Source: Escherichia coli (GTDB lineage: Bacteria; Pseudomonadota; Gammaproteobacteria; Enterobacterales; Enterobacteriaceae). Taken from it: a DNA stretch of 64,000 nt. Location of the stretch: the NCBI RefSeq assembly GCF_050920415.1, contig NZ_CP169309.1. The stretch is one strand, 5' to 3'. Below are positions 28,218-35,809 of this stretch, piece by piece; the stretch's first letter is position 1; each line of letters begins with the position of its first letter. Both the position numbers and the translations under genes were made by a program. Under the pieces are notes generated by a model. It was not told the origin of the DNA. It did not search any database and saw nothing but the letters and a program-made list of their open reading frames with translations.

Positions 28218-28335
28218 TCCTCTTTTTGCAATAATCCGAAAAAATGTGAAGCGCCTCGCCATTTTCATATCTCACAGTTGCCACTTATCTTCAATTTAAT
28301 GAAGATATAAATATTCACTTTATTGAAAATTTACT

Positions 28336-29241
28336 ATGCGTCGAACGTTTATCAAAAAAGAAGGCGTCGTCATCACGACACTGGCCCGTTATTTGTTGGG
28401 TGAAAAGTGCGGTAATCGACTGAAAACCATAGATGAACTGGCAACTGAATGCCATTCATCGGTTGGTCTGACACAGGCCGCGTTGAAAACGCTGGAATCA
28501 AGCGGAGCGATACGGATAGAACGCCGTGGGCGCAATGGCAGTTATCTGGTGGAAATGGATAACAAAGCGCTGCTGAGTCATGTGGATATCAATAACGTTG
28601 TGTGTGCCATGCCTTTGCCCTATACCCGCTTGTACGAAGGTTTAGCAAGCGGGCTGAAAGCCCAGTTTGATGGCATTCCTTTTTACTATGCGCATATGCG
28701 CGGCGCGGATATTCGCGTGGAGTGTTTGCTTAACGGTGTCTATGACATGGCGGTGGTTTCCCGACTGGCGGCAGAAAGTTATCTCACGCAAAAAGGCTTA
28801 TGCCTCGCGCTGGAGTTGGGGCCGCATACCTACGTTGGTGAGCATCAGTTGATTTGCCGTAAAGGGGAGTCTGCAAAGGTGAAACGCGTGGGGCTGGATA
28901 ACCGTTCGGCGGATCAGAAAATTATGACCGATGTCTTTTTTGGCAGTAGCGATGTAGAACGTGTCGATCTCTCATATCACGAGAGTTTACAACGCATTGT
29001 TAAAGGCGATGTCGATGCGGTGATCTGGAATGTGGTAGCGGAGAGCGAACTGGCCATGCTGGGATTAGAAGCGATGCCACTGACGAACGATCTGCGATTT
29101 TTACAGGCTACTGAAGCCGTGATACTAACGCGTGCCGATGATTACCCAATGCAACAACTGCTGCGTGCAGTGGTTGATAAACAGGCCCTGCTTGCCCATC
29201 AACAACGAGTGGTGAGTGGGGAACAGGAACCCAGTTATTAA
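28336..29241 (+). CDS. yhfZ: Putative regulator YhfZ (first gene of the cryptic yhfZ-yhfS cluster)
   Basis: 301 aa; matches the E. coli gene downstream of trpS. Confidence 0.85.
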   Translation: MRRTFIKKEGVVITTLARYLLGEKCGNRLKTIDELATECHSSVGLTQAALKTLESSGAIRIERRGRNGSYLVEMDNKALLSHVDINNVVCAMPLPYTRLYEGLASGLKAQFDGIPFYYAHMRGADIRVECLLNGVYDMAVVSRLAAESYLTQKGLCLALELGPHTYVGEHQLICRKGESAKVKRVGLDNRSADQKIMTDVFFGSSDVERVDLSYHESLQRIVKGDVDAVIWNVVAESELAMLGLEAMPLTNDLRFLQATEAVILTRADDYPMQQLLRAVVDKQALLAHQQRVVSGEQEPSY

Positions 29242-29257
29242 ATGAAAGGCATCTGAA

Positions 29258-29620
29258 ATGGAAACCAGACTCAACCTGCTTTGCGAGGCAGGCGTTATTG
29301 ATAAGGACATCTGCAAAGGCATGATGCAGGTCGTCAAGGTACTGGAAACCGAATGCCATTTGCCAGTGCGCAGCGAGCAAGGAATGATGGCGATGACACA
29401 TATGGCGAGCGCACTGATGCGCAGTCGCCGTGGTGAAGAAATAGAGCCGCTGGATAACGAATTGCTGGCAGAGCTGGCGCAATCCAGCCACTGGTCAGCC
29501 ATTTTACAATTGCATCAGGTGTTGTTGAAGGAATTCGCACTGGAAGTTAACCCGTGTGAAGAAGGCTATTTGCTGGCCAACCTTTATGGATTATGGATGG
29601 CTGCTAACGAAGAGGTTTGA
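29258..29620 (+). CDS. yhfY: Uncharacterized protein YhfY
   Basis: 120 aa METRLNLLCEAGVIDKDICKGMM... Confidence 0.85.
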   Translation: METRLNLLCEAGVIDKDICKGMMQVVKVLETECHLPVRSEQGMMAMTHMASALMRSRRGEEIEPLDNELLAELAQSSHWSAILQLHQVLLKEFALEVNPCEEGYLLANLYGLWMAANEEV

Positions 29621-29703
29621 GGCTCCCGACAAATCCACGTCGCACAACCTAAATATTCAAAAAAATGAATATTTAATTCAAGGAACAGAAACGAGGCAAC
29701 AAG

Positions 29704-30867
29704 ATGTTTGTAGAAGCATTGAAACGCCAGAACCCGGCACTGATTTCCGCCGCACTAAGATTGTGGCAACAGGGCAAGATCGCCCCGGACAGTTGGGTAA
29801 TCGACGTCGATCAGATACTGGAAAACGGTAAGCGGCTGATTGAGACGGCGCGGCTTTACGGCATTGAACTGTATCTGATGACCAAGCAGTTTGGTCGTAA
29901 TCCGTGGCTGGCAGAAAAACTGCTGGCGCTGGGTTACAGCGGCATTGTGGCGGTGGATTACAAAGAGGCACGAATCATGCGCCGCGCAGGTTTACCGGTG
30001 GCGCATCAGGGGCATCTGGTACAAATCCCTTGTCATCAGGTTGCTGACGCCGTTGAACAGGGCACCGACGTCATCACCGTGTTTACACTCGACAAAGCGC
30101 GGGAAGTTTCTGCGGCAGCGGTGACGGCCGGGCGGGTCCAGCCTGTGCTGCTCAAAGTTTATAGCGACGATGATTTTCTTTATCCGGGGCAGGAGAGCGG
30201 TTTTGCACAGCATTCGCTGCATGAGGTGGTTGCTGAAATCCAGAAACTACCGGGGTTACATTTAGCCGGATTAACCCATTTCCCTTGCCTGCTATGGGAT
30301 GAGGCTGCCGGGAAAGTTTTGCCAACACCGAACCTCCAGACGCTGGTCAATGCTCGTAACCAACTTCTGAAGTCTGGAGTTGTACTTGAGCAATTAAACG
30401 CGCCTTCAGCGACCAGCTGCACTTCGCTGCCATTACTGGCGGAATACGGTGTGACTCATGCCGAACCCGGCCATGCGCTGACGGGGACGATTCCGGCAAA
30501 CCAGCAGGGCGACCAACCTGAACGTATCGCCATGCTTTGGCTGAGCGAAATTTCCCATCACTTCCGTGGCGACAGCTACTGCTACGGCGGCGGTTATTAC
30601 CGTCGTGGTCACGCGCAACATGCGCTGGTGTTTACGCCAGAAAATCAAAGCATTACTGAAACATATCTCAAAGCCGTAGATGACAGCAGTATCGACTACA
30701 CCCTGCCGCTGGCAGGCGAGCATTCGGTAAGCAGTGCTGTGGTGCTCTGCTTTCGCACGCAGATTTTTGTCAGCCGTAGCGATGTGGTGCTGGTATCGGG
30801 TATTCAGCGCGGCGCGGCAGAAATTGTGGGGCGTTATGACAGCCTCGGTAACCCTCTGGAGGCGTAA
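29704..30867 (+). CDS. yhfX: Uncharacterized YhfX (alanine-racemase-fold PLP enzyme family)
   Basis: 387 aa; stop overlaps the yhfW start. Confidence 0.85.
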
Positions 30868-32093
30868 TGGCGCGATTTGTGGTGTTAGTGATTGATAGCT
30901 TTGGCGTAGGCGCAATGAAAGATGTCACGTTGGTGCGCCCACAGGATGCCGGGGCGAATACCTGTGGTCACATCCTGAGCCAGTTGCCGCATTTGCAGCT
31001 ACCAACGCTGGAGAAAATGGGGCTAATCAACGCATTAGGTTATGCGCCAGGCGATATGCAGCCGTCAGACTCCGCAACCTGGGGCGTGGCAGAGTTGCAA
31101 CATGAAGGTGGCGACACCTTTATGGGGCATCAGGAAATTTTAGGCACGCGCCCGTTACCGCCGCTGCGGATGCCCTTTCGCGATGTGATTGACCGTGTTG
31201 AACAGGCATTAGTCACCGCTGGCTGGCGGGTTGAGCGCCGTGGCGAAGAGTTGCAATTTCTGTGGATTAATCAGTCGGTTGCCATTGGCGATAACCTCGA
31301 GGCGGATTTAGGCCAGGTCTATAACATCACCGCCAATCTCTCTGCGATCTCTTTTGACGACGCAATCAAAATTGGTCGTATCGTGCGTGAGCAGGTACCG
31401 GTCGGTCGGGTCATTACATTTGGCGGCCTGTTAACCGACAGCCAGCGCATTCTCGATGCGGCTGAAAGTAAAGAAGGGCGCTTTATTGGCATAAATGCGC
31501 CGCGTTCTGGCGCTTATGACAATGGCTTCCAGGTCGTACATATGGGCTACGGCGTCGATGAAAAAGTGCAGGTGCCGCACCAACTGCATCAAGTGGGCGT
31601 GCCCACGGTGCTGGTGGGTAAGGTGGCAGATATCGTCAGCAATCCTTATGGCGTGAGCTGGCAAAACCTGGTGGATAGCCAGCGGATTATGGATGTCACC
31701 CTTGACGAATTTAACACGCATCAGACGGCGTTTATTTGCACCAATATCCAGGAAACCGACCTCGCTGGTCACGCAGAAGACGTCGCACGTTATGCCGAAC
31801 GTTTGCAGGTCGTTGACCGTAACCTTGTCCGGCTTGTTGAGGCGATGCAGCCAGATGATTGCCTGGTCGTGATGGCGGATCACGGTAACGATCCGACCAT
31901 TGGTCACAGCCACCATACCCGTGAAGTAGTGCCAGTGCTGGTTTATCAGCAAGGGCTGGTCCACACGCAACTCGGTGTGCGCACCACGCTTTCTGATGTG
32001 GGGGCTACCGTGTGTGAATTTTTCCGTGCGCCACCGCCACAAAATGGTCGCTCTTTTCTTTCCTCCCTCCGGTTTGCAGGAGACACCCTATGA
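30867..32093 (+). CDS. yhfW: Uncharacterized YhfW (phosphopentomutase/metalloenzyme-like)
   Basis: 408 aa; ATGA overlap with php. Confidence 0.85.
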
Positions 32094-32968
32094 GTTTTGA
32101 TCCGACGGGCTTCACCCTCGCCCATGAGCATCTGCATATTGATCTCTCCGGCTTTAAAAACAACGTGGACTGCCGCCTTGATCAGTATGCGTTCATTTGC
32201 CAGGAGATGAACGACCTGATGGCACTGGGGGTGCGTAATGTGATTGAGATGACCAACCGTTACATGGGGCGCAATGCACAATTTATGCTCGATGTAATGC
32301 ACGAGACGGGGATCAACGTGGTGGCCTGCACCGGTTATTACCAGGACGCGTTTTTCCCGCAACATGTGGCGACCCGCAGTGTGCAGGAACTGGCGCAGGA
32401 GATGGTCGATGAAATTGAACAGGGTATCGATGGCACGGAGCTGAAAGCCGGGATCATCGCGGAGATCGGCTCCAGCGAAGGAAAGATTACGCCGCTGGAA
32501 GAGAAAGTTTTTATTGCCGCCGCGCTGGCACATAACCAGACCGGACGCTCGATCTCCACGCATACGTCGTTCAGCACGATGGGGCTGGAGCAATTGGCTC
32601 TGTTGCAAGCCCACGGAGTTGATCTTTCGCGCGTCACCGTTGGTCACTGCGATCTGAAAGACAACCTCGACAACATTTTGAAGATGATCGATCTCGGCGC
32701 CTATGTACAGTTCGACACCATTGGCAAGAACAGTTACTACCCGGACGAAAAGCGCATTGTGATGCTTCATGCGCTACGCGACCGTGGGTTGCTGAACCGC
32801 GTCATGCTGTCGATGGATATTACGCGCCGCTCTCATTTAAAAGCCAACGGTGGTTATGGCTATGACTATTTATTAACCACCTTTATTCCGCAATTGCGCC
32901 AGTCAGGATTCAGTCAGGCCGATGTGGATGTGATGTTACGTGAAAATCCCTCTCAATTTTTCCAATAA
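32090..32968 (+). CDS. php: Phosphotriesterase homology protein
   Basis: 292 aa [22 protein letters not shown] (HxH metal-binding motif of the amidohydrolase/PTE family). Confidence 0.9.
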
Positions 32969-32978
32969 GGACAGACTC

Positions 32979-33332
32979 ATGAAAAAGATTGGTGTTGCAG
33001 GCTTACAGCGTGAGCAGATTAAAAAAACCATTGAAGCGACGGCTCCTGGCTGTTTTGAAGTTTTCATTCATAACGACATGGAAGCGGCGATGAAGGTGAA
33101 ATCCGGGCAACTGGATTACTACATCGGCGCGTGTAATACCGGTGCGGGCGCGGCATTGTCGATTGCCATCGCGGTGATTGGCTATAACAAAAGTTGCACC
33201 ATTGCCAAGCCGGGCATTAAAGCGAAAGACGAGCATATCGCCAAAATGATCGCCGAAGGGAAAGTGGCGTTTGGGCTTTCCGTTGAGCACGTCGAACATG
33301 CGATTCCGATGCTGATTAACCATCTGAAATAA
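32979..33332 (+). CDS. yhfU: Uncharacterized protein YhfU
   Basis: MKKIGVAGLQREQIKKTIEA...; 117 aa. The track ORF starts upstream inside php. Confidence 0.82.
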   Translation: MKKIGVAGLQREQIKKTIEATAPGCFEVFIHNDMEAAMKVKSGQLDYYIGACNTGAGAALSIAIAVIGYNKSCTIAKPGIKAKDEHIAKMIAEGKVAFGLSVEHVEHAIPMLINHLK

Positions 33333-33343
33333 AAGGCACGACT

Positions 33344-34648
33344 ATGGATCTGTATATTCAGATTATCGTGGTGGCGTGCCTGACGGGTATGACATCGCTT
33401 CTGGCGCATCGCTCGGCAGCCGTTTTTCATGACGGTATCCGCCCGATCCTGCCGCAACTGATTGAAGGCTATATGAACCGTCGTGAGGCGGGGAGTATCG
33501 CTTTTGGTCTGAGCATTGGTTTTGTGGCCTCGGTGGGGATCTCTTTTACCCTGAAAACCGGGTTGCTCAACGCATGGTTACTCTTTCTTCCTACCGATAT
33601 CCTCGGCGTACTGGCGATAAACAGCCTGATGGCGTTTGGCCTTGGTGCACTCTGGGGCGTACTGATCCTCACCTGCCTGCTGCCGGTAAACCAGCTGCTG
33701 ACCGCGCTACCGGTGGATGTATTAGGTAGTCTGGGGGAATTAAGCTCGCCAGTGGTTTCAGCTTTTGCACTGTTCCCGTTGGTGGCGATTTTCTACCAGT
33801 TTGGCTGGAAGCAAAGTCTGATCGCCGCCGTGGTAGTGTTGATGACCCGTGTGGTGGTAGTGCGCTATTTCCCGCATCTCAATCCGGAATCCATCGAAAT
33901 CTTTATTGGCATGGTGATGCTGCTGGGGATCGCGATAACTCACGACCTGCGTCATCGTGATGAAAATGATATTGATGCCAGCGGGCTTTCGGTGTTTGAA
34001 GAACGCACGTCGCGGATTATCAAAAACTTACCGTATATCGCCATCGTAGGGGCGCTGATTGCCGCAGTTGCCAGCATGAAGATTTTTGCTGGTAGTGAAG
34101 TGTCGATCTTCACCCTGGAGAAAGCATATTCCGCAGGCGTTACACCGGAGCAATCGCAAACGCTGATCAACCAGGCGGCGCTGGCGGAATTTATGCGCGG
34201 GCTGGGCTTTGTGCCGTTGATTGCCACCACCGCGTTAGCAACAGGTGTGTATGCCGTTGCGGGCTTTACCTTTGTTTATGCGGTGGGCTATCTCTCTCCG
34301 AATCCGATGGTTGCGGCGGTATTAGGCGCAGTGGTTATTTCGGCAGAAGTCCTGTTACTTCGTTCGATCGGCAAATGGCTGGGACGCTACCCATCGGTAC
34401 GTAATGCGTCGGATAACATCCGTAACGCCATGAATATGCTGATGGAAGTGGCTCTGCTGGTCGGTTCTATTTTCGCAGCAATTAAGATGGCGGGCTATAC
34501 CGGATTCTCCATCGCGGTTGCCATTTACTTCCTCAACGAATCCCTGGGCCGTCCGGTACAGAAAATGGCGGCACCGGTCGTAGCCGTAATGATCACCGGC
34601 ATCCTGCTGAATGTTCTTTACTGGCTTGGTCTGTTCGTTCCGGCTTAA
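33344..34648 (+). CDS. yhfT: Inner membrane protein YhfT (multi-pass)
   Basis: 434 aa, many hydrophobic helices. Confidence 0.86.
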   Translation: MDLYIQIIVVACLTGMTSLLAHRSAAVFHDGIRPILPQLIEGYMNRREAGSIAFGLSIGFVASVGISFTLKTGLLNAWLLFLPTDILGVLAINSLMAFGLGALWGVLILTCLLPVNQLLTALPVDVLGSLGELSSPVVSAFALFPLVAIFYQFGWKQSLIAAVVVLMTRVVVVRYFPHLNPESIEIFIGMVMLLGIAITHDLRHRDENDIDASGLSVFEERTSRIIKNLPYIAIVGALIAAVASMKIFAGSEVSIFTLEKAYSAGVTPEQSQTLINQAALAEFMRGLGFVPLIATTALATGVYAVAGFTFVYAVGYLSPNPMVAAVLGAVVISAEVLLLRSIGKWLGRYPSVRNASDNIRNAMNMLMEVALLVGSIFAAIKMAGYTGFSIAVAIYFLNESLGRPVQKMAAPVVAVMITGILLNVLYWLGLFVPA

Positions 34649-34659
34649 GGAAGGTACCT

Positions 34660-35745
34660 ATGAAGACGTTTCCTTTGCAAAGCCTGACGCTTATTGAAGC
34701 GCAGCAAAAGCAGTTTGCGTTGGTGGATACGATTTGCCGTCATTTTCCCGGCAGCGAGTTTCTTACACGCGGGGATTTAGGCTTAACGCCAGGGCTGAAT
34801 CAACCGCGTATTACTCAGCGTGTGGAGCAGGTGCTGGCTGATGCGTTTCATGCGCCAGCGGCGGCGCTGGTACAGGGCGCAGGTACTGGAGCGATTCGTG
34901 CGGCGCTGGCAGCTTTGCTCAAACCGGGGCAGCGTCTTCTGGTGCATGACGCGCCGGTTTACCCGACGACTCAGGTCATTATTGCGCAGATGGGGCTGAC
35001 GCTTATCACTGCTGATTTTAATGACCTGTCGGCACTGAAGCAGGTCGTCGACGAGCAACAACCAGATGCCGCGCTGGTGCAGCATACGCGCCAACAGCCG
35101 CAGGACAGCTATGTGCTGGCAGATGTGCTGGCAACATTGCGTTCGGCTGGCGTTCCTGCGTTAACCGATGACAATTATGCGGTGATGAAGGTGGCTCGAA
35201 TTGGCTGCGAATGCGGCGCGAATGTTTCGACATTCTCCTGTTTCAAGCTGTTTGGACCAGAGGGTGTTGGCGCAGTGGTAGGTGATGCCGATGTTATTAA
35301 CCGGATCCGCGCCACGCTCTATTCCGGCGGCAGTCAGATCCAGGGCGCACAGGCGCTGGAAGTATTGCGTGGTCTGGTGTTTGCGCCAGTCATGCACGCG
35401 GTGCAGGCGGGGGTATCTGAACGGTTGCTGGATTTACTTAACGGTGGCGCGGTGGCGGAAGTTAAAAGCGCCGTTATTGCCAATGCGCAGTCGAAGGTGT
35501 TGATTGTGGAGTTTCATCAACCGATTGCCGCCAGAGTGCTTGAAGAGGCGCAAAAGCGCGGCGCGTTGCCTTACCCGGTCGGCGCAGAGTCAAAATATGA
35601 AATCCCGCCGCTCTTTTATCGACTTTCCGGAACGTTTCGTCAGGCGAATCCGCAATTAGAACATTGTGCAATTCGCATTAACCCGAATCGCAGCGGTGAT
35701 GAGACGGTATTGCGGATTTTGCGCGAGAGTATTGCCAGCGTTTAA
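34660..35745 (+). CDS. yhfS: Uncharacterized YhfS (PLP-dependent transferase-like)
   Basis: 361 aa; last gene of the cluster. Confidence 0.85.
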   Translation: MKTFPLQSLTLIEAQQKQFALVDTICRHFPGSEFLTRGDLGLTPGLNQPRITQRVEQVLADAFHAPAAALVQGAGTGAIRAALAALLKPGQRLLVHDAPVYPTTQVIIAQMGLTLITADFNDLSALKQVVDEQQPDAALVQHTRQQPQDSYVLADVLATLRSAGVPALTDDNYAVMKVARIGCECGANVSTFSCFKLFGPEGVGAVVGDADVINRIRATLYSGGSQIQGAQALEVLRGLVFAPVMHAVQAGVSERLLDLLNGGAVAEVKSAVIANAQSKVLIVEFHQPIAARVLEEAQKRGALPYPVGAESKYEIPPLFYRLSGTFRQANPQLEHCAIRINPNRSGDETVLRILRESIASV

Positions 35746-35775
35746 TTCTGGGAACGATGTTTTCGCAGAGGATGG

Positions 35776-35809
35776 AGAAAAATACGCCCTCGGAAAATTC
35801 AGAGGGCGT
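35776..35809 (-). terminator. Intrinsic terminator downstream of yhfL
   Basis: Stem ACGCCCTC (35784-35791) / GAGGGCGT (35802-35809); on the minus strand followed by ATTTTTCTCC. Confidence 0.6.

Follow-up and report, generated by a model that had tools for sequence, protein, structure and literature searches.

Up to now, pathways of the L-ascorbate (ula) type and the COG1735 phospho-sugar lactonases are known to pair PTS uptake with a lactonase, and the EF_0829/AHA_3910 cluster (TIGR03576-TIGR03582) is known to combine a PRD protein, an aldolase and a SelA-like PLP enzyme with membrane proteins and small soluble proteins. The yhfZ-yhfS cluster of Escherichia coli K-12 MG1655 (b3383-b3376), located between trpS and yhfL, is itself already known, while a functional assignment is absent from the literature by gene, protein and family names: full-text searches with these names returned no function-assigning paper, in keeping with a preliminary description of the present DNA which had treated the cluster as cryptic, with no established function. 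The yhf cluster is thus one of the larger function-less gene blocks remaining in E. coli. Structural genomics has solved the structures of four of its proteins, but these entries carry the label uncharacterised and have not led to a function.

We analysed a window of 64,000 nucleotides of E. coli DNA (contig NZ_CP169309.1), in which positions 28336-35745 hold eight plus-strand open reading frames orthologous to K-12 yhfZ, yhfY, yhfX, yhfW, php, yhfU, yhfT and yhfS. The order, orientation and protein lengths are the same as in K-12 MG1655, as is the location between trpS and yhfL, and the domain assignments agree with the products described earlier, so that the gene identities proposed there are right; YhfY and YhfU had been left undescribed. 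The tight packing with two start/stop overlaps was also correctly reported, the overlaps being those of yhfX/yhfW (1 nt) and yhfW/php (4 nt), and the remaining intergenic gaps are of 10-16 bp, with the exception of 83 bp between yhfY and yhfX. All frames are open as claimed, each gene having the length of its K-12 MG1655 orthologue, and zero internal stops. The whole window matches E. coli MFDS1022581 (NZ_CP169399.1) at 100% identity, and RefSeq calls the same eight genes there. Since the cluster occurs in 5058 of 5426 complete E. coli genomes (~93%), it is ordinary for this species, and its intactness in the present strain is unremarkable.

The amino-acid identity to the K-12 orthologues is 92-100% over the eight genes and dN/dS ranges from 0 to 0.17 with dS of 0.13-0.38, by which measure all eight are under purifying selection. 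These values bear on the question whether the cluster is decaying in E. coli and no longer functional, in which case "cryptic" would mean dead. Decay might be suspected from the literature, where full-text searches by gene, protein and family names found neither a phenotype nor a function, from truncated or fused YhfT in some E. coli records, and from the dN/dS of yhfX, yhfW and yhfY (0.14-0.17), which exceeds that of the flanking housekeeping genes (0.007-0.017). However, eight frames stay open at K-12 lengths, dN/dS is far below 1 despite appreciable divergence at synonymous sites, catalytic residues and operator half-sites are conserved, and most complete genomes keep the cluster, hence we regard a dead remnant as very improbable. 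The earlier wording "potentially functional" is upheld by the purifying selection together with catalytic residues that are invariant across phyla and a conserved operator joining the genes in a regulon.

Nucleotide identity between the window and K-12 is 93.2% over the cluster and 96-98% in the flanks, where K-12 carries a REP element pair after trpS and frlABCDR after yhfS, both lacking in the window. At the latter junction (35751..35780), where K-12 has the 5.2-kb frlABCDR operon, the BLAST alignment to K-12 breaks; the frl-less junction is common to 2104 of 5426 E. coli genomes. Further downstream, between the convergent yhfS and yhfL, lies a hairpin ACGCCCTC-N10-GAGGGCGT (35784..35809) with a T-tract on the minus-strand side, which is presumably a terminator.

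The first gene, yhfZ (28336-29241), encodes a regulator of 301 aa with a winged-helix HTH_41 domain and a YhfZ_C sensor domain, both matched by Pfam. It scores 372.9 bits against the full-length NCBIfam model YhfZ_full (NF041241; cutoff 260), which places it in the GntR-type YhfZ family; its dN/dS to K-12 is 0.05, and the structure of its C-terminal domain (2OZZ) is labelled "hypothetical protein". We further found a 20-bp palindrome, ATnTTCA-N6-TGAAnAT, with three exact matches in the 64-kb window against 0.12 expected by chance, all of them inside the cluster. Box O1 (28287..28306; ATCTTCA-ATTTAA-TGAAGAT), an exact consensus match, and box O2 (28311..28330; ATATTCA-CTTTAT-TGAAAAT), ending 5 bp before the yhfZ ATG, stand upstream of yhfZ, and box O3 (29653..29672; ATATTCA-AAAAAA-TGAATAT) stands 32 bp upstream of the yhfX ATG. 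The same three boxes are present in K-12, with the half-sites kept and the spacer different; other genera keep a site at the position of O1, tandem boxes also occur in K-12, Citrobacter, Klebsiella and Trabulsiella, and a box equivalent to O3 is found 31-33 bp before yhfX in 14 other loci. In 1.63 Mb of related DNA there are 69 exact matches, of which 67 adjoin cluster or PTS genes by automatic placement and the other two (L069:7048, L084:11737), judged by eye, lie at or just before yhfZ or yhfX. What is more, a site with at most one mismatch is found upstream of yhfZ in 52 of 71 loci, compared with 1.6% of random segments, and in Firmicutes the half-sites of the box have co-varied to TACA/TGTA. 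The box, which is kept from Enterobacterales through to Fusobacteriota, is probably the YhfZ operator. YhfZ would bind at the two palindromes before yhfZ and the one before yhfX, and we infer that it acts there by repression; the conserved candidate operator ties the genes into one regulon. On the opposing side, a sigma-70 promoter scan gave no enrichment.

To delimit the conserved module, we took a census of 91 loci carrying a YhfT relative, in which the partners are YhfU (87 loci), YhfX (85), Php (83), YhfW (78), YhfZ (74), YhfY (73) and YhfS (39). As judged from this co-occurrence, the conserved core is YhfY-YhfU-YhfT-Php-YhfX-YhfW, with YhfS an accessory outside it. The distribution is patchy, some 100,000 species having yielded at least 289 loci, which are scattered across phyla, and the catalytic residues of all four enzymes (Php, YhfW, YhfX and YhfS) are invariant in Enterobacterales, Vibrionaceae, Fusobacteriota and Firmicutes. 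The mechanistic steps suggested below for each protein are all drawn from family membership and gene neighbourhood.

The gene php (32090-32968) encodes a phosphotriesterase-homology protein of 292 aa, a binuclear-metal amidohydrolase of Pfam PTE that scores 641 bits against PRK09875 and has solved structures (PDB 1BF6, 4LEF). Residues H12, H14, E125, H158, H186 and D243 are invariant among 26 relatives, and the best solved relatives are lactonases of the phosphotriesterase-like family. Following its name, one may ask whether the cluster detoxifies organophosphate triesters, in view of the Pfam PTE membership and the 98 bits that Php scores against the organophosphate hydrolase model. The exact score of 97.9 bits is however far under the cutoff of 500, and almost equals that against the phospho-furanose lactonase model NF045706 (95.2 bits; cutoff 630), to which the likeness likewise holds at the family level only. 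In true phosphotriesterases (PTE) the bridging metal ligand is a carbamylated lysine, whereas in Php this position is the invariant Glu125, four His and one Asp ligands being invariant as well. In addition, triester hydrolysis leaves no role for the conserved partners (PLP enzymes, a mutase and a PRD protein). Php is thus rejected both as a phosphotriesterase proper and as an NF045706 lactonase, and detoxification is so improbable as to be nearly negligible; as a hydrolase of the phosphotriesterase/lactonase family, Php would open an ester or a lactone.

The product of yhfW (30867-32093; 408 aa) is a phosphopentomutase-like metalloenzyme of the alkaline-phosphatase superfamily, for which PRK12383 is the only passing model, of YhfW type (728 bits). 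In the alignment to Bacillus cereus phosphopentomutase, the DxxG, DT and metal-ligand motifs are matched by D10, T84, D298, H302, D338, H339 and H350, which are conserved among 27 relatives; with all phosphopentomutase catalytic residues there, YhfW may move or transfer a phosphoryl group. YhfX (29704-30867; 387 aa) is a PLP enzyme of fold-type III, the alanine-racemase fold, with Pfam matches to Ala_racemase_N (1e-21) and YhfX-like_C, an invariant PLP lysine K61 in the barrel, and a solved structure labelled "uncharacterized" (PDB 4KBX). Among characterised proteins of solved structure it comes closest to alanine racemase (5e-5) and D-threonine aldolase (1e-3), and its PLP chemistry would racemise, epimerise or eliminate at an amino-bearing carbon. 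YhfS (34660-35745; 361 aa), the accessory member, is a fold-type I PLP enzyme matching YhfS-like_C as well as aminotransferase and Cys/Met PLP families in Pfam, with invariant K196 (the PLP lysine) and D170 and a structure again labelled "uncharacterized" (PDB 4J8L). The nearest characterised relative is methionine gamma-lyase (7e-11), with O-succinylhomoserine sulfhydrylases also close; such a gamma-lyase-like enzyme may supply an optional extra step in Enterobacteriaceae and some Firmicutes.

The membrane protein YhfT (33344-34648; 434 aa) is a multi-pass protein of the rare family PF10797 and a presumed transporter; truncated or fused products are seen in the E. coli records P0005, P0063, P0071 and P0076. 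The gene yhfU is always next to that of the membrane protein. The mechanical list of reading frames starts yhfU at GTG 32940, while the RefSeq annotation and the conserved N-terminus in the alignment favour ATG 32979, giving a gene at 32979-33332 and a DUF2620 protein of 117 aa. YhfU has a short fold of the RpiB/LacAB type and the catalytic-loop motif C-x-T-G-x-G, with C52, G55 and G57 invariant and T or S at position 54. The match to Pfam LacAB_rpiB is non-significant (E = 0.16 over 30 residues), as are those to PDB profiles (E = 0.17-0.84), none of which gives a significant match over a full-length domain. Typical RpiB chains among the matches have 148-158 aa, and YhfU is short of some 30 C-terminal residues of RpiB. 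RpiB has an N-terminal Asp-His pair in its first loop, where YhfU reads AGLQ; lacking both this pair and the C-terminus, YhfU may not be an isomerase. With the invariant cysteine that it keeps at the RpiB catalytic loop, YhfU may act on the substrate by isomerising or trapping it, and it would join YhfT in bringing the substrate in. An extended and rather doubtful proposal is that YhfT, a membrane protein seemingly without structural relative, and YhfU, its truncated RpiB-fold partner, form a new kind of uptake unit, in which the cysteine isomerises or covalently traps an entering sugar phosphate under control of the PRD protein and YhfZ with its box, and a core, here counted as seven genes, degrades an unmapped class of nutrient that would be new to the map of bacterial carbohydrate or amino-sugar catabolism.

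Regarding the PTS, a link inside the cluster is yhfY (29258-29620), which encodes a stand-alone PRD-domain protein of 120 aa. The Pfam PRD match is weak (E = 0.005) and that to TIGR03582 of the EF_0829 family (E = 4.6e-6) scores under the cutoff; H48, A52, R55 and E101 are invariant among 46 relatives, H48 being a putative phosphorylatable histidine conserved in a T-H-x-x-x-A-x-x-R motif, while a second histidine, kept in Firmicutes, has given way to Asn in Proteobacteria. With this invariant histidine YhfY might couple expression to the phosphorylation state of the PTS. In other genomes, PtsI overlaps the end of yhfW (one Clostridiales genome), in Thalassobacillus the cluster is followed by a NagB that passes its curated cutoff (NagB being present in 2 of 91 loci), and Cof-type and ComB-type phosphatases are also neighbours. 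Several Vibrionaceae have complete IIB-IIC-IIA genes of the lactose/chitobiose type and a DUF7916 gene beside the cluster, with a YhfZ-box 42 bp before the IIB gene in one locus (L068) and another in the shared divergent region of a second (L060). Only 9 of 91 loci have a PTS module at 10 kb or less from the cluster, and the eight genes of the E. coli cluster include no PTS permease, kinase, NagB or aldolase gene. Identity with PTS enzyme IIB was also considered and rejected, as a phosphorylatable cysteine in the first strand-helix loop was not found.

Our preferred reading is that of a single regulon by which a phosphorylated amine or acid derived from a sugar (an amino-sugar, an amino-aldonate or a lactone phosphate, for instance) would be taken up and broken down in a PTS-linked manner, with the chances of its being right about evenly balanced. 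The earlier suggestion of uptake and catabolism of an amino-sugar or amino-acid-like substrate agrees with the PtsI, PTS IIB-IIC-IIA, NagB and sugar-phosphate phosphatase neighbours, and is kept here as a suggestion. It is to be noted that alpha-amino acids are the usual substrates of PLP enzymes of fold-type III, which would suit an amino-acid substrate equally well. An alternative is that the substrate is not a sugar but a lactone, lactam or ester of an amino acid (homoserine lactone, say, or a related C4-C6 amino-acid derivative), which would be degraded by ring opening (Php), racemisation (YhfX), phosphotransfer on a hydroxy-amino acid (YhfW) and gamma-elimination (YhfS). The lactonase relatives of Php, the amino-acid racemases and D-threonine aldolase nearest to YhfX, the methionine gamma-lyase and sulfhydrylase likeness of YhfS, and a weak match of YhfW to the "proposed homoserine kinase" family all speak for it, as does the finding that the multicopy suppressors of a pdxB deletion include both php and thrB (PMC3010111). 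But YhfS is missing from most loci, therefore gamma-lyase chemistry cannot be central; moreover, the conserved PRD and RpiB-fold partners and the recurring PTS, NagB and sugar-phosphate phosphatase neighbours point to carbohydrate phosphates. With the PTS link and the RpiB-like YhfU favouring a sugar phosphate over a plain amino acid, we consider the amino-acid reading unlikely.

Another question is whether the cluster serves metabolite repair or a small biosynthetic pathway, with an endogenous phosphorylated intermediate as its substrate instead of a nutrient. Overexpression of Php rescues the pdxB deletion, and the complementation genetics suggest a Php route forming a phosphorylated C4 oxo-acid; under overexpression, Php supplies PLP synthesis with a phosphorylated intermediate of endogenous origin (PMC3010111). 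The E. coli cluster is also without an obvious entry kinase or exit aldolase. Set against this are a dedicated, ligand-sensing regulator of the repressor type with predicted autoregulatory boxes, a PRD protein, a membrane protein in nearly every locus, PTS permeases and NagB nearby, and the patchy spread across phyla, which are typical of accessory catabolic operons. A repair or biosynthetic role is accordingly quite unlikely, and nutrient catabolism remains the preferred reading. For it there are now new handles: a phylogenetically footprinted operator that defines the regulon, a division of the genes into core and accessory, the finding that DUF2620 has an RpiB-type fold, and the repeated association with PTS and NagB. 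With these, the search for a substrate is narrowed to amines, acids or lactones that derive from sugars and can be phosphorylated.

In comparison with the known systems, the ula and COG1735 systems have in common with yhf the binuclear-metal hydrolase family of Php and, in some cluster-bearing genomes, the PTS neighbours; however, ula and lactonase operons are without YhfX, YhfW, YhfU and YhfT, and the E. coli yhf cluster is without a PTS permease. RpiB/LacAB proteins have about 150 aa compared with 117 aa for YhfU, and the RpiB gene is not always beside a membrane-protein gene. With DeoB, YhfW shares the superfamily core, in which the nucleophilic Thr and six metal ligands align with B. cereus phosphopentomutase, whereas the alignment is poor over the "cap" domain in the middle (residues about 100-235) and the scores against TIGR01696 (141.9; cutoff 341.2) and PRK05362 (180.7; cutoff 256) reject YhfW as a DeoB equivalog. 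The EF_0829/AHA_3910 cluster resembles yhf in its organisation, with a stand-alone PRD protein set beside a PLP enzyme and membrane proteins whose family is unknown, but its enzymes differ from those of yhf, and its models score YhfY at 27 bits (TIGR03582; cutoff 69) and YhfS at 22 bits (TIGR03576; cutoff 304).

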